A program made the position numbers and the translations under genes. Shown one piece after another: positions 12,031 through 25,758 of a DNA stretch of 64,000 bases. A model generated the notes under the pieces. It did no database searches. It had not been told where the DNA came from and saw only the letters and a program-made list of their open reading frames with translations. The stretch covers positions 4,480,001 to 4,544,000 of the forward strand of contig OY761159.2 in the NCBI GenBank assembly GCA_963664395.2, read 5' to 3'. Origin of the DNA: Candidatus Binatia bacterium (lineage in GTDB: Bacteria > Desulfobacterota > Binatia > Bin18). Each line of letters opens with the position of its first letter. The stretch's first letter is position 1.

Positions 12031-13184
12031 ATGGCACGAATCTTGGGCAATACCTCTTGAGCAAAGAGTCGCAGGCTCTGCGTCGCGAGTTCATCCGGCA
12101 GCGAGCCAAACTGAAACATAGCAAGCAAGGTTCCGCGTTTGCCCTCTTCGCGTTGACGCCTAATTTGGGCGATCACACTTTCCGGACCGCCCAGAATGAC
12201 CGTCCCATTCTCAATCCCTTCGTCCACGCTATAGCCCATGGCCTTGCCCGTCTCTTTACTGGTGACATTCTTCAGCCAATCGCGCAGGCCGTTTACACTC
12301 ATATGTCCGGGGATAAGCGAGACAGTGCCGATATCAAACGACGCCAGCGCGCGGAAGAAGTGGTACTCTAAATGCGATTCAGCCTCTTGGCGTGCCTTTT
12401 TATCGCTCTCGCCAACGTATAAGGCGCAGATCGAGGCAAACATATCATCAAAATCCTCGGGGACAGTGACGCTTTGCTCTTGAGCCAGCCGATAATACGT
12501 CTCGTGCACAGAGCGCGTACGCTCAATACTGACCCACGGCGTGGCAATATAGGTGCGATTCTTGACCGCAAAATCGAGCGAGTCCAAGCTGTTGGCCGCC
12601 ATCCAGATTTTCGGATAGGGCTGCTGCAAGGGTTTAGGCCAGATATTGTAGTCCCGAACGCGGTAAAACTCGCCATCAAAATCAAACGGCCCCTCACTCG
12701 AAAGCGCTTTCAGGACTAAGGAAAAACCTTCCCGAAACCGAGCCTGAGATTCCGCCGGGTTGACATTGTAGGACAGGTATTCGGTCGGAAAACCACGCAG
12801 CGCCCCCCAAATAAAACGACCATTGCTCAGGTGATCCAGCATTGCGACCTCTTCCGCAATGGCAAGCGGGTGGTGTAACGGAATGCACGTGCCGGTGACA
12901 GCCACCTGAAGATGCTTCGTGCGTTGTGAGACGGCTGCGGCCATGAGGTGAGTCGAGGGCACCATGGCACAAAATCCGCCCCCGCCATGATGCTCCTGAC
13001 AGGTGAAGCCATCCAACCCAAGCTCATCACTGAGTGTGATCCGGTTCAACTCCTGCTCAAGTAAGGCGTTTCCCTGAACAGGATCAAAATACTTATTCGA
13101 AAGGGGATACGATCCAGGCGCACCAACGGGAGCATCGTCAGGCAGGTGCGGCCAGCCAAACAGCACCATATTAAAGACTCTCAT
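12027..13184 (-). CDS. LLM class flavin-dependent monooxygenase
   Basis: QEHH, PLAIAEEVAMLDHLSNGR, WPKPLQQPYP. Confidence 0.93.
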   Translation of the reverse strand: MRVFNMVLFGWPHLPDDAPVGAPGSYPLSNKYFDPVQGNALLEQELNRITLSDELGLDGFTCQEHHGGGGFCAMVPSTHLMAAAVSQRTKHLQVAVTGTCIPLHHPLAIAEEVAMLDHLSNGRFIWGALRGFPTEYLSYNVNPAESQARFREGFSLVLKALSSEGPFDFDGEFYRVRDYNIWPKPLQQPYPKIWMAANSLDSLDFAVKNRTYIATPWVSIERTRSVHETYYRLAQEQSVTVPEDFDDMFASICALYVGESDKKARQEAESHLEYHFFRALASFDIGTVSLIPGHMSVNGLRDWLKNVTSKETGKAMGYSVDEGIENGTVILGGPESVIAQIRRQREEGKRGTLLAMFQFGSLPDELATQSLRLFAQEVLPKIRAI

Positions 13185-13999
13185 GCTCCTCCCCCCTCCT
13201 GTGGCGGAACGAAGGTGTTAATCGCCTGGATAACGGCCTCGCAATCCTCCACATACGGCAGATGTCCGGCCCCCGGAATTGTCACGCTGTAAGCGCGCGG
13301 TAGGGATGAAGTCCACAGAGCGGCGTGTGATGGATCCAGGAGGGGGTCCTGCTCTCCCCAGACGACCAGCGTCGGTGTGGTTAAAAGATGCAGGTAATAG
13401 CGCAGGCTGCGACTGTGGAGGTAGGGGTCAAACACCAGTCGGATGCTCGCGTTGCGGTTGTTGATGAATGCGTCGGTCCAGTTACTCAGGTCGGGAACAT
13501 ACAGTGAGGCCCGCTCCGGAGCTGCACCCGTAAAAAAATACCCCTGCAAGCGCGCCGGGTCTGTATAAAAGAGATTTGGGACCTTGGTCCAATCCTGCAC
13601 TAAGCCGAGCGGGCTAATCAAAACCAGCTTGGCAATCCGCTCCGGTCTGAGCAGAGCGAGCTCAGCCCCTACCCATCCACCCAGGCATGAGCCGACGACA
13701 ATCGGCCGTTCGAGCGACAGCGCATCAAAGAATTGCAGCAGCAACACCGCCAAGTCATGCGGTGTCTTCGCCCACTCTGGCAATGAGGATTGTCCATAGC
13801 CCGGCAGGTCGGGAACAAACACCTGGAAACGTTCGGCTAAGCGCTGGTGGTAGTCCATCCAGCCCGGCTCGCCCCACAACCAGTGGAGCCATACCAGTGG
13901 AGGCCCTTGGCCAGCCTGTTGGTAGCAAAACTGGATGGTGGCCCGCGCCGCGTCATCTCCACGCAACTCAAGCGTTTCCTGTTGCGGAGTAATGTCCAC
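13181..13999 (-). CDS. Alpha/beta fold hydrolase (Cys at nucleophile elbow)
   Basis: PDLPGYGQS, GSCLGG in place of GxSxG, PTLVVWGEQD, GAGH. Confidence 0.88.
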   Translation of the reverse strand: MDITPQQETLELRGDDAARATIQFCYQQAGQGPPLVWLHWLWGEPGWMDYHQRLAERFQVFVPDLPGYGQSSLPEWAKTPHDLAVLLLQFFDALSLERPIVVGSCLGGWVGAELALLRPERIAKLVLISPLGLVQDWTKVPNLFYTDPARLQGYFFTGAAPERASLYVPDLSNWTDAFINNRNASIRLVFDPYLHSRSLRYYLHLLTTPTLVVWGEQDPLLDPSHAALWTSSLPRAYSVTIPGAGHLPYVEDCEAVIQAINTFVPPQEGGGA

Positions 14000-14060
14000 A
14001 GATTCCCTCTTTTGCTATTAGGGTTAGCACAAGCTAGGCAATTCTACAGCCTGTAATGAT

Positions 14061-14121
14061 AGCAGACATCCTTTCTTCGAGAGCACACGGCTGGCGATCT
14101 CCCGATTAATGGCCGACACCT
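14061..14121 (-). repeat. Degenerate third copy of the NUDIX 3' coding region
   Basis: 52/61 identical by manual alignment to 17881-17941; reads VSAINREIASRVLSKKGCLL versus VPAINREIASRVLSQEKCLL in the NUDIX gene. Confidence 0.85.
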
Positions 14122-14143
14122 ATCAGTTCTCCCTACCCCGTGG

Positions 14144-17100
14144 TTACGGTCCCGCGCCATCAGGATCATGCGAGACAATGACAAAGTTCTGGCTGTTCTG
14201 CTGCCACTCCAGCGTCACCGTCTCGCCTGTCGTGGGGAAGTCCGGCACCATACATTCTCCCACGGCCCCCCGTAGAAACTCCGTCCCCAGGGTCGTCACC
14301 GTCACGGTTGCGCGGCCTAACTCTTCGTCGTCAACGTAGGCCACGACTTCGTGCACCCCGTCGTCCAGCCGGTTCCAGTTGAACAACAACCCAAACCCGT
14401 TGTTCGTGTCCCCACAAGCATCTTGGGTATCCAGCCGCTCCGTCCCATACGCCGCCACGTAGCGCGCGACCTCTCCGCCCTCGGTCGTGATCTCGATCTC
14501 CACCTCGTCCCCCTCGCACACCCAGCCCGACAGCACCCCAATCCCGCTCTGGAATGAGTCCGCCCCCGGGTTCTCCAGATAGCCCCGGGGCGCCGCAGAC
14601 GGCGTGCTGCTCCCGCCGCGCCTAGGGGGCGGGCTCCTCCGCGCCGCCCGCGTCACCCTGACGTTATCGTCCCGGCACAAGTCCAGGGGGTTGGTGATGA
14701 ACCTGTCGTAGAGGACCGGCGGCAGGGTGAGCTCGGTGAGGGGGTTATTGCACAGATCCAGGAACGTCAGCGCGGTGAGTGGGTCGAAAATACCCGCCGG
14801 CAGGCTGCTCAGGGCGTTCCTCTCCAGTATCAAAGCGTTCAGCTTGGTGAGCCCGGCGAAGTCGCCCGGCTTGAGGCTGCTGATGTTCTGTGAAGTCAAA
14901 TCCCACGTCGATCTATCGAGGCTCGTCAGATGCGCCGGCGTCACGTCGGCGCACGTGGTGACGGAGGCATCCGCCTCCATGACCTCCTCCACGATGGCGT
15001 CGCGCACTTGTGCCGTGCGGGCGCATATGCCCCCCGACAACGTCGTGGCCTGGTCGGTATCCGAGGGGTCGCCGGGGCCGAGTACGTTGCGTGCCGAGAC
15101 GCGGTAGTGGCGGGTGTCGCCGGGGTCGAGGCCGGTGTGTGCGTAGGTGGTGTCCGTGTTGCCGGTGTTGGCCTCGAGGTCGGTCCAGCTGCCGTTGCTC
15201 CCGTCAGTGGACACCTCGATGCGATAGCCGGTGATGGGATTGTTGCCGGTGTTGGCCGGAGCGGTCCAATCGAGGTTGATCTGGTTCGGTCCGTTGGCCG
15301 TCGCGGTGAGGCCGGTCGGCGCGCCGGGGACGGTGACGGTTGGTGCCTCCCGGGTCACCGTGACGGTATAGGTCTTCACCGCGCCGCCGGTCTCGGCCGT
15401 GACCTTCACCTTGATGGTGTTCGGGCCGACGACGAGCGTCATGTCGAGCGGGTTCGTGTCCGTGTTCGTGTCCGTGTCGAATTCCGGGTCCAGGATGCCG
15501 GCGCTCACCGTGAGATCTCTCAGCGTCGCGAGGGTCCGGGGGTCGATGACCGACACCGTGACGGTGTCGGTGCCGGTCGCTCCAAGGGCCGCCCCGTGAC
15601 CGTCAGCGTGAACGCCAGGTCGCCTGCGGTCGAGGGGGCGGTGAAACTCGGGCGCGCGGTGTCGGCGCCGGTGAGCGTGACCGTCGCGCCGCTCGCCTGC
15701 CTCCACGCATAGATCACGTTCGTGCCCCACGGGCTGCTGCTGCTGCCGGCGAGCGCCACCGCGGCACCCGTCGCCACCCTTTGGGTCTCGCCCGCCTCCG
15801 CCGTTGGCGCGAAGGGCTCGGGGTTGGAGTTCTTCTGCAGGGTCAACGTCGTCAGCGTCGTGAGATCCTGGAAGACGTTCGCCCGCAGGCTGCTCAGGGC
15901 GTTGTTATTCAGGCACAACGTGTCCAGCGTGGTGAGCCCGTCAAAAATTCCCGCCGGCAGGCTGCTCAGGGCGTTGTATGACAGATTCAGGTCGTCCAGC
16001 GCGGTGAGCCCGGTGAACAGGCCCGCCGGCAGGCCTCTCAGGGTCAGGGCGTTGTTTTGCAGAGTCAGGCGCTCCAGCTCGGTGAGCCCGGCGAAGATAT
16101 TCGCCGGCAGGCTGCTCAGGGCGTTGTATGACAGATTCAGGTCGTCCAGCGCGGTGAGCCCGGTGAACAGGCCCGCCGGCAGGCCTCTCAGGGCGTTGTT
16201 TCGCAGAGTCAGCTGGTTCAGCGCAGTGAGCCCGGCGAAGTCGCCCGACTGGAGGCGGCTGATGCTCTGGTTACGCAAATTCAGGATCTCGAGGTCCGCC
16301 AGATGCGTCGCCGTCACGTTAGCGCACGTGGTGGCCGCCGTGGCTGCCACGATGGCGTCGCGCACTTGTTCCGTGCGGGCGCATATGCCGCCCGTCCGCG
16401 CCGGGTACAGCTTGCTCGTCCGCGCCTCGTCGAAGCCCGTATTGTCCTGGAACGCGACCCTGACCTTGAAATGCTTGCCCACGTCGGCGGCGACCAGGGT
16501 GTGGGTGCTGCTCGTCGCTCCGCTGATCTCGGTCTCGACCGCCATGTCGTCGACCCGTATCCACTGGTAGCTGTAGCTGACGCCGGCGAGCCCGTCGGCA
16601 TCGGAGATCCCCGTCGTCACGGCGGTCAGCGTATCCCCGACCATAGTGGCCGTGCCGGTGATGGTGGGCAGGCCCGTGGCCGGGATGTTCTTCGGGGTCG
16701 CGTTGACCGCGATTCGATACATGGAGCCAGTGCTTTGCCATGAGCGTTGAGAGGGTATGGGTGCGTACCGGTACGAGTACGAGTCGTCGTGAATCTCCCA
16801 CCCGGCCGCCGCGCCGGTGTCTTCGTCTGTCTCAGTGGTGGTGCCGATATTTACGCCTCTCCTATTAACGCCAATAATCGACCGACTCTTTATATCGATG
16901 GTCACGAAATACGCCGTGTTCGGCGTAAGATCGATCATCGTGCCGGTCGGAAGGGTGAAGGTCGCGGTTCCGGCGTGGGTTCTAGTGAAGAGCGGGTTGA
17001 CGAATGTCACCCAGTCGGTGCTGCTTGGGCGGTCCACGCTGCCCGTTTCCCTCGTCCGCAGACTGACCCTCAGGTCGGTGATGGTGGTGGGATCTCCGAA

Positions 17101-17403
17101 GCTGTCCATGTGGAGCTGCACGCTGGTCAGACTGTAGCCCGCCCGCTGCGGGCCGATTTGAAACCCTTGGGCACTGGCGAACGAACCTCTCTGTCGGAGC
17201 GTCGTCGTCCCCTGCCCCAGGTTGCTCACCAGGGTGGCAGCCTGCGCCGGGGCGGGCAGCGCCACGAGCAGCAGACCGAGCAGTATCCAGCCCGCCCGCA
17301 CCCCCCACAGGTGCTGACGGATGGGCGGCAATGTGCGGGAAAGTTGCGGTTCCCTAGCCCCGTGCCGTCCCGGCCACGAGCCGCCGGTCCAGAGATATAC
17401 CAT
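14144..17403 (-). pseudogene. Large exported LRR / cadherin-like / fibronectin type III protein with C-terminal GYLENPG module; split by one frameshift near 15592
   Basis: ORF 15520..17403 (signal peptide ending PAQA, LVSNLGQ domain resembling choice-of-anchor R, 24-aa LRRs, PKD-like) continues in ORF 14144..15730 (cadherin-like, FN3 PGAPTGLTATA, LRRs, GYLENPG module); adding one G to the G4 run at 15592-15595 joins them as LTVTGAALGATGTDT. Confidence 0.8.
15952..16193. repeat. Near-perfect ~92-bp internal duplication (150-bp period) within the LRR array
   Basis: CGCCGGCAGGCTGCTCAGGGCGTTGTATGACAGATTCAGG...GGCCTCTCAGGG repeated at ~15952-16043 and ~16102-16193. Confidence 0.9.
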
Positions 17404-17822
17404 TCATTCTCCTCCGCTCTTTTTCTTGTACATGCTGTCTGTTTCCCTGCGGGCTTCCATTGCCATACAACATTCCGCCGCCCTTGTCCCTACCAAAATT
17501 AAGGGAGTGACAGAAAAAATACGGAAAAAATGCGGGCGGACCGAACATACCTGGCCGGCCCCTCCTGGCTACGGGGAGAGGCCCCCTCGGCGGGCGGCGG
17601 AGCGGTGTGTTGTTTGCTCTATGCGGCAGGCGACCCGACACAGCGGCAGCCCGGGCAGAGCCTTTACAGGCAGACAGGGGGGGAGAAAGCAAAGGGCCGG
17701 GGTCGTTTGGGAGCGGACAACTCACAATGCCATGTAGCGGAATGGTCCCGTCCATTCCGGCGCAAGAACGTCACCCCTGTGAAAACGTGATCCGGCATGA
17801 CTACGGCTTATCGGGAAACGCT

Positions 17823-17947
17823 CTAACCGACAAAGAGCGTATAGGGTTTACCGTTCAGGTGGATGAGCTCTTGCGGCTCCAGCAGACGTTTTTCCTGAGA
17901 GAGCACCCGGCTGGCGATCTCCCGGTTAATGGCCGGCACCTGCTCCA
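17823..17947 (-). repeat. Displaced second copy of the NUDIX 3' end (last ~41 codons plus stop)
   Basis: 111/125 identical by manual alignment to 21072-21196; encodes LEQVPAINREIASRVLSQEKRLLEPQELIHLNGKPYTLFVG*. Confidence 0.95.
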
Positions 17948-17985
17948 GGAGTACGCTCCTCCTGCCCGCCCAAGCCCTACGGCGG

Positions 17986-20900
17986 TTACGGCCCCATCTC
18001 CTCCGGGCCATGCGAGACAATGACAAAATTCTGACTGTTCTGCTGCCACTCCAGCGTCACCGTCTCCCCAGGCATCGGAAAATCGTCTACCACACATTTC
18101 CCCTCGGCCCCCCGCAGAAACTCCTCCTCTTCCCCCTCCCCCACGGTCGTCACCCGTACCGTCGCCCGGCCCAATTCCATATCGTCTACATAGGCCACCA
18201 CCGTATGCTCCCCATCGCCCAAGCGGTTCCAGTTGAACAGCAATCCAAAGCCGTTGTCCGTGTCGCCACACACCGCTTGGGTGTCCAAGCGCTCCGTCCC
18301 ATACGCCGCCACCTGCCGCTCAACCTCTCCCCTCTCGGTCTCGATCTCTATCTCCACCTCCTCGGCTGCACACACCCAGCCCGAGAGCACCCCAATCCCA
18401 CTCTGAAACGAATTCGGCCCCGGGTTCTCCAGATACCCTATGTCGGCTGCCCCGGTCCGGTTGTTGCCGGTCCGGTTGTTGCCGGTCGGCGCAGCTCCGT
18501 CCGTGAGCACGAAGTTCTGACGCGGCTGTTGCCACCTCAGCGTCACCTGCTCCCCAGACATCGGGAAGTCTTCAACCACGCATTCCCCCGCCACATCCCG
18601 CAGAAACGCCTCGCCCAGCGTCGTCACCGTTACCGTGGCCCGGCCCACCTCCACGCCATCCACCACGGCCACCACAGTATGCGTCCCATCGCCCAGCAGA
18701 TTCCAGTTGAACAACAGCCCAAAGCCGTTGTCCGTGTCCCCACAGATATTTTCCGTATCCCCCCGCTCCGTCCTGTAGGCCGCCGGCTGCGAACTGCCGT
18801 TGATCGCTATCTCCACCTCCTCCGCCTCGCACACCCAGCCCGACAGCACCCCAATGCCGCTCTGGAAAGAGTCCGGCCCCGGATTCTCCAGATACCCGAC
18901 CACCAGGGCCGTCGCTAAGGTATACGCTCCGGTCCGGCTCCCATTGCCTTCGACGGCGACCAGGACCGGCCCCGCGGCTACGCGCACGCTCAGCCAAAAG
19001 TTCCGCCGCTCCCCGCCACTGGCCGCCCTCGCCACCTCCTCGCCGTCTTGCCAGACTGTACCTACGGTATCGGTCGATCCGCTCGTCTCCACCACCAATA
19101 CCCCGGCCTGGGGCAGGGTAATCTCGAAGTAATCGATATCGTCCGCCGTGTTGATCTGCCCAGCCGTGGACGACGCCCAGGGGGCAGACTCGCCGAGCAG
19201 GACCGTCGTCGCTTGCGCGGGCGTGTCGCCATGCCGGTCGCGACTGCCGCCGCCGCCCCCTCCTCCACCGGACGGTGGCGGCGGGGGCGGCGGTGGCGGC
19301 GGGGGCGGTGGCGGTGGGGGCGGTGGGCGAACGGGAACGATCTTGAGTATCTTGTCCTGGCCATTACCGTTCGAGGTGGAGACATACAGCGCACCGGCAG
19401 GGCCGAGCATGGGCGTCCGCAGCCGACCGTGCGTATTGTCGAGTTCAGGCACGACCACTTGACTCACGAAGGTGCCATCATCAGTGAACTCGAAGACACG
19501 CAGCGACTTATTCTCGAGCGTGGCCACTGCCAGTCGTCCCTCCCACTCGCCCCAGCCGTTCCCCTCCAGAAAGATGCCGCCACCGGTGGCCAGGGTCGGG
19601 TCCCCCGACGACCACTTGGCCGCAATGGCGTTGGGGAACTTCACGAGGTCGGTCATGGGGACGCTTTCGTTGTATCCGGGCACGGGGTCCCAGCCATAGT
19701 TGCTACCGGCGACCAGCAGGTTGATCTCGTCATCAATTGTCGGGCCGTGCTCTACCGACCACATCTGGCGCGTGCCGGGTCGCAGCGCCAAACCCTGTAC
19801 GTTCCGGTGGCCATAGGTGTAAATCAGCGGTGAAGAAGCGAACGGGTTCCCCGGCGCCCCGGCACCCGTCGATGCGTCCACCCGCAGAACCTTTCCGCCG
19901 AGCGAATTCAGATTCTGCGGGGTCGTCCCGACTGCTGCGTCACCGGTTGCGATCCACAGATAGCCGTCTGGGCCGAAACGCAATCGGCAGCCGCCGTGCC
20001 GGCCAGAAGTAGCAGAGGCGGGGATGCCGCCAACGAGAGGATCGACGCTTCGGGTGGCCGCAGTGTATGCGGCGTTAAGGGTCCAGGCAATCACCTGCAC
20101 TTCCGGCCCGGTGTGGGCCTGACAGGTGTAGAAGCGTCGGTTAGAGGCGAAATCCGGATCGACGATAATCGCCATCAACCCAGATTCTCCCAAGACGAAC
20201 AGGTCACTGAAGTCGGCGGTGACGGTCTGGACCGTGCCGTCGGTGAGTCGGCCACTCAACTTGCCTCCCCGCTCGGTGAACAGCATCGTCCCGTCGGGCG
20301 TAAAGGCGAGATCCCAGGGAATGTTGAGGCCGGAGACGAGCGTCGTGACCGTGATCTCCGGCGCTACCGCCTGGAGCGTGAAGGTCAGCGTCGCGACCGG
20401 CTCGTTCGAGAACTTTCCTATCCCCTTGATGCTGGTGATCGTACCTTGCGGCGAGGTGGCGGTGTTGTTCAGCGAGAACTCCGTGCCCTCCTCCGTCCCC
20501 GCGTCGTACGGAAACAGCTCTACCGTCTTTGATGCCAGCCAGTCTCCCTGCGCGTCGAGCAGGGACAGTCCGGAGACGCCGGCAAACCAGTCCGGGCTCG
20601 GGGCAATCATCGTAACCAGGGTCACTCGGGGATAAGTGGCAGTGACCGTAAAGTCGACCGTGGCAGCCACAGTCCCCCCGGATGGGATGGATTGCTCAAT
20701 GACGGCGCCCGCATTGGAACCAGCGGCGGTGATCTCGGCCTTGAGGGCACTCGTGCCCCCCACTTCTGCCATGCTCTCGATCCCGGCACTGGCCGTGCCG
20801 CCACTACTCCAGAAGATGACCTGGTCGTTGTGGACGGCACCGACCAACGGCGAGAAATGCGCCCCGGAGGGCACCCCGTAGGGGGTCGCAGTGGTGGTCC

Positions 20901-21009
20901 ATTTGCCCTCAAAGGTCACCTGATAGGTGGCCGATTGCGCGTGGGCAATGGCGGCCTGCCCCACAATCAGCAGGAGAGCAAAAGTCACGAGCAGCATGTT
21001 TTTGTTCAT
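17986..21009 (-). CDS. Exported multidomain protein: spondin_N + PQQ-dependent sugar dehydrogenase (GSDH) beta-propeller + poly-Pro + PPC-like + two GYLENPG modules
   Basis: Signal peptide from ATG 21009 (ending AHA); HFSPLVGAVH, MIAPSPDWF, YDAGTE (spondin_N); PWDLAF, HGGCRLRFGPDG, YGHRNVQGL, EHGP..DDEIN (GSDH). Confidence 0.88.
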   Translation of the reverse strand: MNKNMLLVTFALLLIVGQAAIAHAQSATYQVTFEGKWTTTATPYGVPSGAHFSPLVGAVHNDQVIFWSSGGTASAGIESMAEVGGTSALKAEITAAGSNAGAVIEQSIPSGGTVAATVDFTVTATYPRVTLVTMIAPSPDWFAGVSGLSLLDAQGDWLASKTVELFPYDAGTEEGTEFSLNNTATSPQGTITSIKGIGKFSNEPVATLTFTLQAVAPEITVTTLVSGLNIPWDLAFTPDGTMLFTERGGKLSGRLTDGTVQTVTADFSDLFVLGESGLMAIIVDPDFASNRRFYTCQAHTGPEVQVIAWTLNAAYTAATRSVDPLVGGIPASATSGRHGGCRLRFGPDGYLWIATGDAAVGTTPQNLNSLGGKVLRVDASTGAGAPGNPFASSPLIYTYGHRNVQGLALRPGTRQMWSVEHGPTIDDEINLLVAGSNYGWDPVPGYNESVPMTDLVKFPNAIAAKWSSGDPTLATGGGIFLEGNGWGEWEGRLAVATLENKSLRVFEFTDDGTFVSQVVVPELDNTHGRLRTPMLGPAGALYVSTSNGNGQDKILKIVPVRPPPPPPPPPPPPPPPPPPSGGGGGGGGSRDRHGDTPAQATTVLLGESAPWASSTAGQINTADDIDYFEITLPQAGVLVVETSGSTDTVGTVWQDGEEVARAASGGERRNFWLSVRVAAGPVLVAVEGNGSRTGAYTLATALVVGYLENPGPDSFQSGIGVLSGWVCEAEEVEIAINGSSQPAAYRTERGDTENICGDTDNGFGLLFNWNLLGDGTHTVVAVVDGVEVGRATVTVTTLGEAFLRDVAGECVVEDFPMSGEQVTLRWQQPRQNFVLTDGAAPTGNNRTGNNRTGAADIGYLENPGPNSFQSGIGVLSGWVCAAEEVEIEIETERGEVERQVAAYGTERLDTQAVCGDTDNGFGLLFNWNRLGDGEHTVVAYVDDMELGRATVRVTTVGEGEEEEFLRGAEGKCVVDDFPMPGETVTLEWQQNSQNFVIVSHGPEEMGP

Positions 21010-21071
21010 GGGTGTATTGAGAGAACCGACTATTCTCCAACAGAATCGGAGCACTATCGAAGGCATAGCCA

Positions 21072-21560
21072 TCAGCCAACAAAGAGCGTGTAGGGTTTGC
21101 CGTTCAGATGGATAAGCTCTTGCGGCAGCAGCAGGCATTTTTCCTGAGAGAGCACCCGGCTGGCGATTTCCCGGTTAATGGCCGGTACCTGCTCCAACCG
21201 TTCAATCTGTTCCAGGGTCAGATACTCGGCGCGGTCAACCTCTTCCATATCGGGTGTGGGCTCACCGCTCAGCGGCGTCATCAGCAGGACGATATACAGA
21301 CTGTTGCCAATGTCGGGATCACACCGATTGCGCAGGCCAATGACGCCTTGCACCTCCCCGGTCACGCCGGCTTCCTCCCGGACCTCACGCACAACGGCCT
21401 GCTCAATGGTTTCGTCCGGCTCGACAAAGCCGCCCGGCACCTGCCAGTTCCCCCTGCCCCGCCGTGAGGCCCGACGCACGAGCAGGAGACGCTTGTCACG
21501 CACGACCGCACCACCAACGCCAAGGTTGTAACCGCGGTTATACCGTTCGGGGATGGGCAT
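21072..21560 (-). CDS. NUDIX hydrolase
   Basis: Nudix box GGFVEPDETIEQAVVREVREEAG. Confidence 0.95.
   Translation of the reverse strand: MPIPERYNRGYNLGVGGAVVRDKRLLLVRRASRRGRGNWQVPGGFVEPDETIEQAVVREVREEAGVTGEVQGVIGLRNRCDPDIGNSLYIVLLMTPLSGEPTPDMEEVDRAEYLTLEQIERLEQVPAINREIASRVLSQEKCLLLPQELIHLNGKPYTLFVG

Positions 21561-23250: not shown

Positions 23251-25758
<2,508 letters not shown>

Follow-up and report, generated by a model that had tools for sequence, protein, structure and literature searches.

The NUDIX array and its displaced gene ends

The DNA studied here is a window of 64,000 nt (contig OY761159.2, positions 4,480,001 to 4,544,000, assembly GCA_963664395.2) from Candidatus Binatia bacterium, referred to as G000. 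The host is a sponge-associated bacterium with a genome of 5.04 Mb. All features described below lie on the minus strand of the window. The anchor of the locus is an intact gene for a NUDIX hydrolase of 162 amino acids (21072 to 21560; Pfam NUDIX, E = 3.7e-24), whose orthologues in 16 genomes of the same genus are 92 to 96% identical at the amino acid level. Its working last 125 nt, from the residues LEQV to the TGA stop codon (21072 to 21196), are referred to as copy 1. Behind them, a remnant of the native intergenic region between NUDIX and the alpha/beta hydrolase gene, namely its first part (21010 to 21071), now serves as the 5' leader of cargo 1 (17986 to 21009), which encodes an exported protein with a Spondin_N domain (Spond_N, 1.8e-40) and a glucose/sorbosone dehydrogenase domain (GSDH, 1.1e-70) and ends in two copies of a C-terminal domain (CTD) of ∼140 amino acids. 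A 38-nt spacer (17948 to 17985), which belongs to the Spondin cassette according to a comparison with G001, separates this gene from copy 2, a displaced full NUDIX 3' end of 125 nt with a TAG stop codon (17823 to 17947). Next come a noncoding stretch with short pieces of a repeated element (17404 to 17822) and cargo 2 (14144 to 17403), followed by a 22-nt spacer (14122 to 14143) and copy 3, a displaced 61-nt piece of the NUDIX 3' end (14061 to 14121; VSAINREIASRVLSKKGCLL). The second part of the native intergenic region (14000 to 14060), aligned with that of insert-free genomes, leads to the alpha/beta hydrolase (13181 to 13999; Pfam), the first gene of a downstream operon whose synteny is conserved in 17 relatives.

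This layout of an intact NUDIX gene, two cargo genes and two displaced 3' ends had been proposed from the letters of the window, and both the repeat search and the Pfam annotation bear it out. One correction concerns cargo 2, which had been described as an LRR/FN3 gene: the gene is present, but its two open reading frames (15520 to 17403 and 14144 to 15730), carrying LRR_8, PKD-like and fn3 domains, are parts of a single gene with a frameshift near position 15,590, as supported by a 1,424-amino-acid homologue that is colinear with it in two frames. Its product is also exported and ends in one CTD. Both cargo proteins of the array are exported and animal-like.

The repeat search of the window detected a 121-nt repeat with 91% identity between copy 2 and the gene (17827 to 17947 versus 21076 to 21196), while copy 3 matched copy 2 at 85% (17881 to 17941) and the gene at 82% (21130 to 21190). 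Over the full 125 nt, copy 2 and the gene are identical at 111 positions, and our recount reproduced the 14 differences claimed earlier, with eight synonymous changes, two altered codons and a stop codon swap. Within the first 121 nt, differences at codon positions 1, 2 and 3 number 2, 1 and 8, respectively, corresponding to seven synonymous and two nonsynonymous codons; the last 4 nt (GGC-TGA in copy 1 versus GGT-TAG in copy 2) add one further synonymous change and the stop swap. A search of the whole genome with the fragment returned only these three copies in 5.04 Mb, the next match being 33 nt long (E = 0.0125). Copy 2 begins 38 nt and copy 3 begins 22 nt past the stop codon of its cargo gene, in agreement with the proposed 20 to 40 bp. 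Within NUDIX their starting points are close together, ∼125 and ∼119 nt ahead of the stop codon, so that the two breakpoints (−125 and −119) lie ∼6 nt apart. The 24 nt behind the stop codon of copy 2 match sequence downstream of the intact NUDIX gene in G025, and copy 3 has lost its remainder to a deletion that also took the first part of the intergenic region.

The codon pattern and the comparison with other alleles agree with the earlier claim that the copies diverged as working 3' ends, since they look like alleles that were once functional, and would fit an origin of the pieces in different lineages instead of local duplication, but the same signals could also come from a later replacement of the working copy by homologous recombination. 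The proposed age gradient, with copy 3 as the more decayed one, is doubtful: its distance from copy 1 (50/61 identical positions) falls within the range of other species' alleles (35 to 54/61). Its nearest allele is that of G021 (54/61), the sister genome of G000 in a tree of five flanking genes, as expected if copy 3 is the native end. The GST gene and NUDIX are nearest to G006, and the downstream monooxygenases are nearest to G021.

The same site in related genomes

We compared the site across 17 genomes of the same genus that have both NUDIX and the alpha/beta hydrolase. The gap between the two genes is only 72 to 159 nt long and free of gene-sized inserts in 10 of them, including the sister genome G021, while the remaining 7 carry differing cargo of 794 to 3,281 nt, composed of a 289-amino-acid open reading frame (single, double or broken), a Spondin-like gene or a small repeat element. 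Given these insert-free sites and the variety of the cargo, the cargo genes are insertions. Filled and insert-free states are intermixed on the tree of flanking genes, and the site is a recombination hotspot. The displaced old ends next to an intact NUDIX gene also bear out the proposed restoration of the target gene.

Insert-free sites and variable cargo had both been anticipated by the sequence-only reading, but the shared breakpoint that it also expected was not seen in these relatives. In relatives, the duplications flanking the cargo, which differs from that of G000, begin at about −57, −33 or ∼0 or within the intergenic region; such scatter had been named beforehand as an outcome that would refute the proposal.

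The Spondin cassette shows how one cargo can share its left junction and differ in its right one. Positions 1 to 1190 of the G000 locus align with 1 to 1208 of G004 at 82% identity, unbroken from NUDIX into the Spondin cargo, and the left junction (NUDIX, intergenic leader, gene) is common to G000, G004 and G001. The right junction, on the other hand, lies at NUDIX −125 in G000, at the NUDIX stop codon or start of the intergenic region in G004, and in the 3' flank of the 289-amino-acid open reading frame in G001, where the Spondin orthologue has the same tail and 38-nt spacer followed by a different sequence.

Displaced gene ends and recombinases across the genome

A scan of G000 for local direct repeats, with repeat lengths of up to 600 nt allowed, retrieved 16 loci, NUDIX included, at which an intact gene 3' end is followed by 365 to 8,732 nt of unique cargo and then by a fragment of the same end in intergenic DNA. 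The fragment was on the wrong, upstream side at just 4 loci (16 versus 4; binomial P = 0.012). The 16 anchors are all different, ordinary genes. Their cargo includes toxin-antitoxin pairs, restriction-modification systems, Cas9 and exported proteins according to Pfam, and comparison of the 16 cargoes yielded no common sequence except the CTD, which was found at two loci. Given that the same architecture recurs behind 15 other unrelated genes, NUDIX is not special. The idea that it acts as the one attachment site, with a single breakpoint, is not supported. This count of 16 comes from one genome and may or may not be unusual.

The displaced coding ends are 54 to 150 nt long, and at 13 of the 16 loci the repeat stops close to the end of the stop codon, from 6 nt ahead of it to 9 nt past it. 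No repeats longer than 155 nt were found although the scan reached 600 nt, which we attribute to the probable instability of long repeats. Differences between fragments and genes at codon positions 1, 2 and 3 amount to 43, 23 and 97, a third-position excess (P = 2e-5) over the 43% share that we estimated for decay in place, with four indels and one premature stop codon in 1,485 nt. The fragments therefore look like formerly working alleles, as far as their sequences tell. Two further loci have counterparts in relatives: G027 has the cargo of the Cas9 locus at the same left junction, without a fragment, and the first 580 nt of the cargo at a hydrolase locus (C1:1.149 Mb) are common to five relatives.

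To find possible drivers of these insertions, we searched G000 with the tyrosine recombinase profile PF00589. This yielded five hits, of which the nearest lies ∼1.1 Mb from the NUDIX locus and none within 1 Mb of the array, in line with the earlier remark that no integrase is in or near it. A Pfam scan of the 16 cargoes revealed no integrase or remnant of one, and PF00589 did not appear among the matches listed for 37 hotspot loci fetched from relatives; one resolvase fragment was found. Most close relatives have three to eight PF00589 hits, including three apparently conserved orthologues. A co-occurrence of recombinases with occupied sites, as had been suggested, is not seen in their counts: the occupied genomes G002, G004 and G025 have three hits each, the lowest number seen in the genus. 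The third tyrosine recombinase (258 to 274 amino acids) appears to be conserved in most genomes of the genus and is a candidate only; because it is present in filled and insert-free genomes alike, it cannot be correlated with occupancy.

Sequence comparison of the CTD loci and the 16 cargoes did not detect an attC-like conserved inverted repeat after the cassettes, and by eye the 16 right boundaries share no motif beyond the stop codon. The inverted motif CCGG-TTAATGG-CCGG had been noticed earlier near the breakpoint. Its general form, CCGG-N7-CCGG, is indeed present in the intact gene and in copy 2, but it is absent from copy 3; among 18 alleles of NUDIX just 3 carry it, and the 7 other occupied genomes all lack it. 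The uptake genes ComEC and DprA are present in G000; since they were also detected in 10 and 11 of 14 control genomes, respectively, their presence is poor evidence of competence. No Ku was detected in G000.

Origin of the array and comparison with known systems

We consider it about as probable as all other explanations together (a probability of roughly 0.5) that the array is the scar of two successive displacements at a hotspot, anchored by homology and independent of an integrase. How the DNA came in, how it was joined illegitimately and which event was first are inferred, as follows. Donor DNA from a related lineage, carrying NUDIX with a cargo gene behind it, would enter the cell and undergo homologous recombination at its left end, either in NUDIX or upstream of the gene, while its nonhomologous right end would be joined illegitimately to the recipient chromosome. 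With this joint slightly upstream of the recipient stop codon, the recipient 3' end would be left as a fragment behind the cargo, and the donor would supply the new 3' end of NUDIX. A second such event would shift the first unit further downstream, and the flanking repeats could then move, stack or delete cassettes via homologous recombination (by unequal crossing-over or through a looped-out circle). Such displacement leaves an intact anchor with older 3' pieces each behind a newer cargo, which is what is seen at NUDIX, and a shared left junction with variable right ones, which is what is seen for Spondin in G000, G004 and G001 and for Cas9 in G000 versus G027.

Because fifteen other ordinary genes are followed by a scar of this type, it appears to be a side product of general recombination and not the work of a dedicated integron-like machine. 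Inserted cargo and displaced ends, which the sequence-only reading had taken as signs of such a machine, are real, but a fixed site, the motif and a recombinase found no support; the evidence favors something close to its fallback, recombination at short homologies. Besides the lack of repeats beyond 155 nt and the ambiguity of the codon-position signal, two observations run counter to this displacement reading. Random illegitimate joints would not predict the near-coincidence of −125 and −119, which may reflect a shared, though not proven, ancestry of the unit made of CTD tail, spacer and fragment; this account rests on one 558-nt blastn alignment and on a tail that just these 2 of the 76 CTD loci in G000 have. 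Repeats that end at the stop codon are also the att-site signature of integrases that target gene 3' ends, and we attribute them to homology between lineages that would cease where coding constraint ends.

That second signature belongs to an alternative that is possible although unlikely, namely that decayed integrative elements accreted at the site. A tyrosine integrase with its attB in the gene 3' end would have inserted tandem entries, each supplying a replacement 3' end and the oldest furthest away, and the recombination module would since have been lost, leaving cargo between attL and attR (as in CIMEs). The elements e14 and phage 21, which integrate into the 3' end of icd and restore the gene, are a parallel. 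An intact gene, cargo and a displaced end of 54 to 150 nt halting at the stop codon fit this class, as do the nearly equal starting positions of the G000 units and the addictive toxin-antitoxin and restriction-modification cargo, which decay should spare; parts of PMC7563491 describe CIMEs as keeping att sites without recombination genes, with the most decayed furthest from the target. However, 16 target genes demand many integrase specificities, whereas PF00589 hits are few, no integrase trace was seen in the cargoes or among the matches listed for relatives' loci, NUDIX breakpoints vary between relatives, and the Spondin cassette has three right junctions.

A more doubtful extension of the displacement reading is that the displaced ends act as portable homology arms, with cassettes looping out as circles and, in other cells, reentering the gene that they came from. 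In this integrase-poor genus of sponge symbionts, such a process would amount to a functional counterpart of integrons, recombinase free or driven by a host recombinase, in which the 3' end of any core gene across the chromosome could capture accessory cassettes with defence, toxin-antitoxin or host-interaction genes; we rate this reading as rather improbable.

Still less likely is a tandem duplication in place of an ancestral NUDIX 3' end with one CTD gene, followed by swapping of N-terminal parts among paralogues. The two units do align as one block of CTD, spacer and NUDIX fragment (558 nt, 75%), their common tail is absent from all other CTD loci among the 76 in G000, and G005 and G025 have the 289-amino-acid open reading frame twice in tandem at this site. 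Yet the CTD bodies are not each other's closest paralogues (81% identity, versus 83 and 86% for their best matches elsewhere), and the cargoes have nothing in common over their N-terminal 2 to 3 kb. In addition, each of the three NUDIX copies is more like an allele of a different lineage, the site is free of an insert in the sister genome, and the 15 other loci with unique cargo are left unexplained.

We regard as very improbable a dedicated system in which single-gene cassettes are moved by a trans-acting recombinase recognizing a site in gene 3' ends or directly behind them. Stacked cassettes that lack their own recombinase and are co-oriented with the anchor, two almost coinciding breakpoints, a defined Spondin right end reused in G000 and G001, and the small recombinase of most genus genomes would suit it; against it stand the lack, by eye, of a motif beyond the stop codon at the 16 right boundaries, cargo ends without similarity, no common element in the 90 nt past the stop codons of the 76 CTD loci, the rarity of CCGG-N7-CCGG, and a candidate recombinase that is present regardless of occupancy. 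Finally, an assembly artefact that joined Spondin and LRR haplotypes via the NUDIX repeat is scarcely credible: contamination of the assembly amounts to 5.37%, and it includes 13 small contigs, at least 4 of which (C2, C4, C9 and C13) match the chromosome beside CTD genes at 93 to 97.5%, pointing to strain variation in the sample, but the window lies within a 4.8-Mb contig, the repeats are just 61 to 125 nt long, 82 to 91% identical, 3 to 4 kb apart and easily spanned, the junction sequences are unique, the architecture repeats at 15 loci, and similar junctions occur in the independently assembled G004 and G001.

Gene-gain hotspots without any mobile-element gene are common in bacteria. The displaced 3' ends are traces that mark an insertion, show its direction, retain part of the previous allele and are countable. 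Should the pattern extend to the whole genus, it would provide a simple sequence signature for recently gained cassettes, which here include Cas9, restriction systems, toxin-antitoxin pairs and exported proteins of a very large family that carries animal-like domains. It would also offer a way to study the renewal of genes for defence and host interaction in an uncultured symbiont that is poor in integrases. In the NUDIX case, the idea of a new integron with a gene as its attachment site gives way to a more ordinary, testable mechanism.

Among known systems, integrons and integrase-less attC clusters (CALINs) hold single-gene, co-oriented cassettes, often toxin-antitoxin pairs, with the newest next to the fixed end. 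The array shares the single-gene, co-oriented cassettes but appears to have no intI, attI or attC-like repeat, and its repeats duplicate the host gene's own sequence. With integrative elements in gene 3' ends (e14 and phage 21 in icd, as well as ICEs, IMEs and CIMEs), it has in common the intact gene, the element and the displaced 3' fragment whose changes are mostly silent, and parts of PMC7563491 also describe tandem stacking with the most decayed copy furthest from the gene. It differs from them in the absence of an integrase (in the cargo, in the neighborhood and, among the matches listed, in relatives' loci), in its varying breakpoints and in cargo as short as 365 nt. Variable islets between core genes likewise carry defence and toxin-antitoxin cargo without mobility genes, as parts of PMC5635113 and PMC13617665 describe. 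Double homologous recombination leaves no duplication, so displaced 3' ends imply one-sided events; the parts consulted of these two papers do not mention such scars, and PMC13617665 does not contain the term "direct repeat".

The closest likeness is to arrays formed by sequential displacement. In Rhs tips, orphan cdiA-CT/cdiI modules and T6SS arrays, the conserved upstream part likewise stays intact, each incoming 3' module brings along some of that part, and older 3' pieces are pushed downstream, all without an integrase. Parts of PMC5361080 propose homology-facilitated illegitimate recombination for T6SS effector-immunity arrays of V. cholerae, and parts of PMC2935791 propose homologous recombination through a circle for Rhs tips. 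Here, by contrast, a housekeeping gene with an unaltered product serves as the anchor, the pattern is spread over 16 unrelated genes instead of one toxin family, and the cargo is a whole separate gene (Spond_N/GSDH, LRR/fn3, toxin-antitoxin, restriction-modification or Cas9) instead of a toxin tip with its immunity gene.

Displaced 3′ ends of the NUDIX gene

In minus-strand order, the array runs from a glutathione-transferase-like gene through the intact NUDIX gene (21560-21072), whose 3′ end is referred to here as copy 1, to a 1007-aa Spondin_N and glucose/sorbosone-dehydrogenase gene (21009-17986), a 125-nt repeat of the NUDIX 3′ end (copy 2, 17947-17823), an LRR/PKD-like/FN3 gene (17403-14144), a 61-nt repeat from the same NUDIX stretch (copy 3, 14121-14061) and, last, a conserved operon for an alpha/beta hydrolase, a luciferase-like monooxygenase, an MFS transporter and a second monooxygenase. 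A repeat search recovered the repeats described in the sequence-only reading of this DNA, with identities of 91% over 121 nt and 82-85% over 61 nt. Its comparison of copy 2 with the NUDIX gene was likewise reproduced, with 111 of 125 nt identical, 8 synonymous differences, 2 altered codons and a swapped stop codon. The whole 5.04-Mb source genome (G000) holds these three NUDIX 3′-end copies and no further one. The proposed age gradient is doubtful: copy 3 (50/61 nt identical to copy 1) is not simply “older,” the alleles of other species being equally distant. It comes closest (54/61) to the allele of G021, which a tree built from five flanking genes places as sister to G000. One frameshift, near 15,590 (minus strand), interrupts the LRR/FN3 cargo, which is a single gene; either the gene is a pseudogene or the shift is a sequencing error. 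Third-position G+C was 0.76-0.84 in the cargo genes (14144-21138) versus 0.61-0.71 in the surrounding core genes.

Both cargo proteins end in a C-terminal domain of ∼140 amino acids (CTD). The breakpoints of the two units lie ∼6 nt apart in NUDIX, and both units align as one 558-nt block of CTD, spacer and NUDIX fragment. The two cargo genes also have in common the tail QNFVIVSH.P...GP*, absent from all others of the 76 CTD loci in G000. The shared block and tail suggest a single origin of the junction, later inherited by both units. The Spondin-like gene of the relative G001 has an identical tail and spacer but a different sequence behind them, indicating that tail and spacer are part of the cassette. 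A single inherited junction accounts only partly for the near-coincident breakpoints in G000.

To compare this site among relatives, we fetched 20 loci around NUDIX orthologues, 17 of which contain both NUDIX and the hydrolase; in G009, G015 and G037 the hydrolase was absent from the fetched stretch, placing them outside the 17-genome comparison. The gap between the two genes measures 72-159 nt, without a gene-sized insert, in 10 of the 17 (G021, G027, G007, G012, G023, G008, G016, G011, G024 and G006) and is occupied (794-3281 nt) in the other 7. An opposite-strand 289-aa ORF is present singly in G018 and G002, as two tandem copies of 82-85% mutual identity in G005 (locus L044) and G025 (L049), and in broken form in G001 and G026, while a Spondin-like gene without the dehydrogenase part is found in G004 and G001. 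Empty and filled states are interspersed on the five-flanking-gene tree, the sister genome G021 being without an insert. These differing contents uphold the claim that cargo was inserted; the claim that old gene ends were displaced is supported as well. Other gaps of the conserved operon (LLM1-MFS, MFS-LLM2, GST-NUDIX and selD-DUF420) also vary, by 0.2-5 kb between genomes (loci L039-L058), and in G011 the monooxygenase and MFS genes are separated by a CTD gene.

The same scar at other genes

On the large contig of G000 (C1), a 2402-aa CTD-family gene (C1:1905003-1912211) lies behind a luciferase-like monooxygenase gene and is itself followed by a 30-nt spacer and then a 97-nt copy of the monooxygenase end. 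Given this scar, we scanned the large contig of this one genome for local direct repeats (50-600 nt long, at least 300 nt apart, within 40 kb), using a crude, ORF-based gene set of 3618 ORFs. The scan was also prompted by flank repeats at 13 of 76 CTD genes versus 12 of 300 random positions, a count that we kept out of the evidence because tandem paralogues and repeat elements make up much of the 13. Among the 258 repeat pairs, those joining a gene 3′ end to an intergenic copy had the fragment downstream at 16 loci versus upstream at 4 (P = 0.012), omitting rows whose second copy lies wholly or partly in an ORF (12 of 32 3′-end rows, mostly CTD paralogues).

The 16 anchors, i.e., the intact genes upstream, are differing ordinary genes, including those for a Na+/H+ antiporter, a methyltransferase, a formyltransferase, an aminotransferase, a UvrD-type helicase, an Nramp protein, a Rieske oxygenase and NUDIX. 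The cargo (365-8732 nt) is mostly single-copy, and cargoes of different loci have no sequence in common except the CTD in two, the exported-protein loci. Among the cargoes are VapBC, Phd/PIN, DUF2283/DUF4258, an addiction-module antidote and TumE; further ones are a PaiB-like protein, cupin plus glyoxalase, DUF463/DUF697, a methylase plus GHKL ATPase, an AbiEii-like ATPase, a methylase/PIN/helicase set, an MmeI-like enzyme, and a Cas9 gene with a repeat array of 66-nt period. The repeats contain 54-150 coding nt, and at 13 of the 16 loci their end lies in the range from 6 nt upstream to 9 nt downstream of the last stop-codon position. Codon positions 1, 2 and 3 account for 43, 23 and 97 of the differences between gene and fragment, and the 1485 nt compared include four indels and one premature stop. 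At three of the 16 loci, the site is empty or otherwise filled in relatives, and cargo shared there has an identical left junction and a different right junction. The Cas9 cargo (locus L229, C1:2954079-2957992), which lies behind the Nramp-like gene and encodes a 1046-aa protein with HNH_4, RuvC_III and Cas9_a domains plus a 193-aa ORF, is present in G027, while the site is empty in five other relatives.

An arrangement of reversed order relative to the usual scar was observed at C1:936835-937013 versus 940254-940438, where a 186-nt copy of the internal/3′ part of a luciferase-like gene lies behind a 2191-aa CTD gene, with the intact luciferase-like gene 3.5 kb further downstream, past two ORFs that resemble short-chain dehydrogenases in sequence. 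Separately, an element of ∼120 nt that contains inverted repeats (about 33 matches in G000, 13 near full length) sits directly behind the NUDIX stop codon in G001 (locus L051, 490-612) and G025. We rejected it as the cause of the duplications, since the 13 near-full-length G000 copies are without long flanking duplications.

The CTD family and related DNA

The CTD (consensus GYLENPG..SFQSG.G.LSGWVC ..., with a conserved Cys) occurs in the window at 14147-14596, 17989-18939 and 23254-24120, all on the minus strand, and gave 138 tblastn matches at the 76 loci in G000. It closes the members of a very large family of exported proteins and is present in at least 1049 database proteins, whose N-terminal domains include cadherin, SRCR, LRR, fn3, Calx-beta and others, and is matched by no Pfam or NCBIfam family. 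An AlphaFold2 model from a 7-row alignment (mean pLDDT of 49) was too poor for a fold search; if this poor model is followed, the domain would be all-beta. In the protein Atlas, Big_7 was assigned to 12-66% of members, a weak lead at a recognition of 1670, under the 2300 mark. The CTD may serve to sort or anchor “eukaryote-like” symbiont proteins. A family-wide downstream element of CTD genes was not found, flanks being common to subgroups only. The third CTD-family gene in the window (835 aa, 23251-25758, minus strand) separates selD from a DUF420 gene, two neighbours that lie about 12 nt apart in relatives; no flanking duplication was seen around it. A paralogue at C1:49318-53233 is near-identical at the N terminus over the first ∼50 residues shown and apparently frameshifted.

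Eleven sequencing runs from 5 studies, several labelled sponge metagenome, contain part (0.21-0.89) of the window's sampled words; we kept these shares out of the evidence on presence, habitat, circles and assembly. The relatives with near-identical loci are labelled uncultured “Candidatus Binatia,” many having closed chromosomes. Metagenome contigs matched the NUDIX protein at no more than 82% identity, none being of this genus; they are mostly short, with names pointing to soil or sediment. Four small G000 contigs (C2, C4, C9 and C13) match chromosome segments adjoining CTD genes at 93-97.5% identity and are probably alternative strain haplotypes, which would make the sample polymorphic at these loci.

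Breakpoints, recombinases and mechanism

The sequence-only reading had proposed an integron-like system with NUDIX as the attachment site, which was not borne out, breakpoints being scattered and integrases scarce. Instead of one breakpoint, relatives show several, an outcome named beforehand as refuting: G005, G025, G002 and G026 carry a second, decayed version of roughly the final 57 nt of NUDIX together with the intergenic region; in G001, the ∼120-nt repeat element is flanked by two 33-nt NUDIX-end copies; in G004, the first 64 nt of the intergenic region, from the stop codon on, are present on both sides of the Spondin-like gene; and the distal copy of G018 and of G001 begins within the intergenic region. 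The CCGG-N7-CCGG motif next to the breakpoint is coding sequence (P-A-I-N-R), present in 3 of 18 NUDIX alleles and in 0 of the other occupied genomes. G000 has five Phage_integrase matches, all at least ∼1.1 Mb from the array, plus one resolvase fragment; most close relatives have 3-8, and three of the relatives' proteins look like conserved orthologues, judging by length and score, one of them a tyrosine recombinase of 258-274 aa. The number of matches does not follow site occupancy: the occupied genomes G002, G004 and G025 have just 3 each, the genus minimum. Ku (NHEJ) was not found in G000 (95.9% complete). One of two nonconserved tyrosine recombinases, in a 406-aa frame (C1:2793875-2794288), is separated by ∼3 kb from six clustered CTD genes (C1:2797388-2816241), several of which have downstream flanks in common.

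We favor, at a probability of about 0.5, homology-anchored, integrase-independent displacement. One side of the incoming DNA would be anchored by homology and the other closed illegitimately; if the right joint fell before the stop codon of the recipient gene, that gene's original 3′ end would remain behind the cargo. The Spondin cassette has one left junction across three genomes and three right junctions, the pattern expected of such one-sided recombination. The near-coincident G000 breakpoints, the sharp stop-codon boundary and the ∼155-nt upper limit need extra assumptions under this anchored model. Decayed integrase-borne elements, for which e14 in icd is reportedly a parallel, are an unlikely source. 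They would leave these three features (PMC7563491), but integrases are scarce in the clade, the sixteen targets differ and the right junctions vary. Duplication in place is more doubtful still, and a dedicated trans-acting cassette system, which the mere ∼6 nt between the two G000 breakpoints would favor, is quite improbable. An assembly artefact we regard as barely credible.

The same model as homology-anchored displacement has been put forward for T6SS effector-immunity arrays (PMC5361080), and a homologous-recombination/circle form for Rhs tips (PMC2935791). The model likewise agrees with the broader view of hotspots that lack mobile-element genes (PMC5635113) and with that of toxin-antitoxin islets (PMC13617665). 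The array belongs with the known sequential displacement/accretion arrays, as a variant with new traits: its anchors are housekeeping genes, its cargo extends to defence and host-interaction genes, and one genome bears the scar at 16 places.
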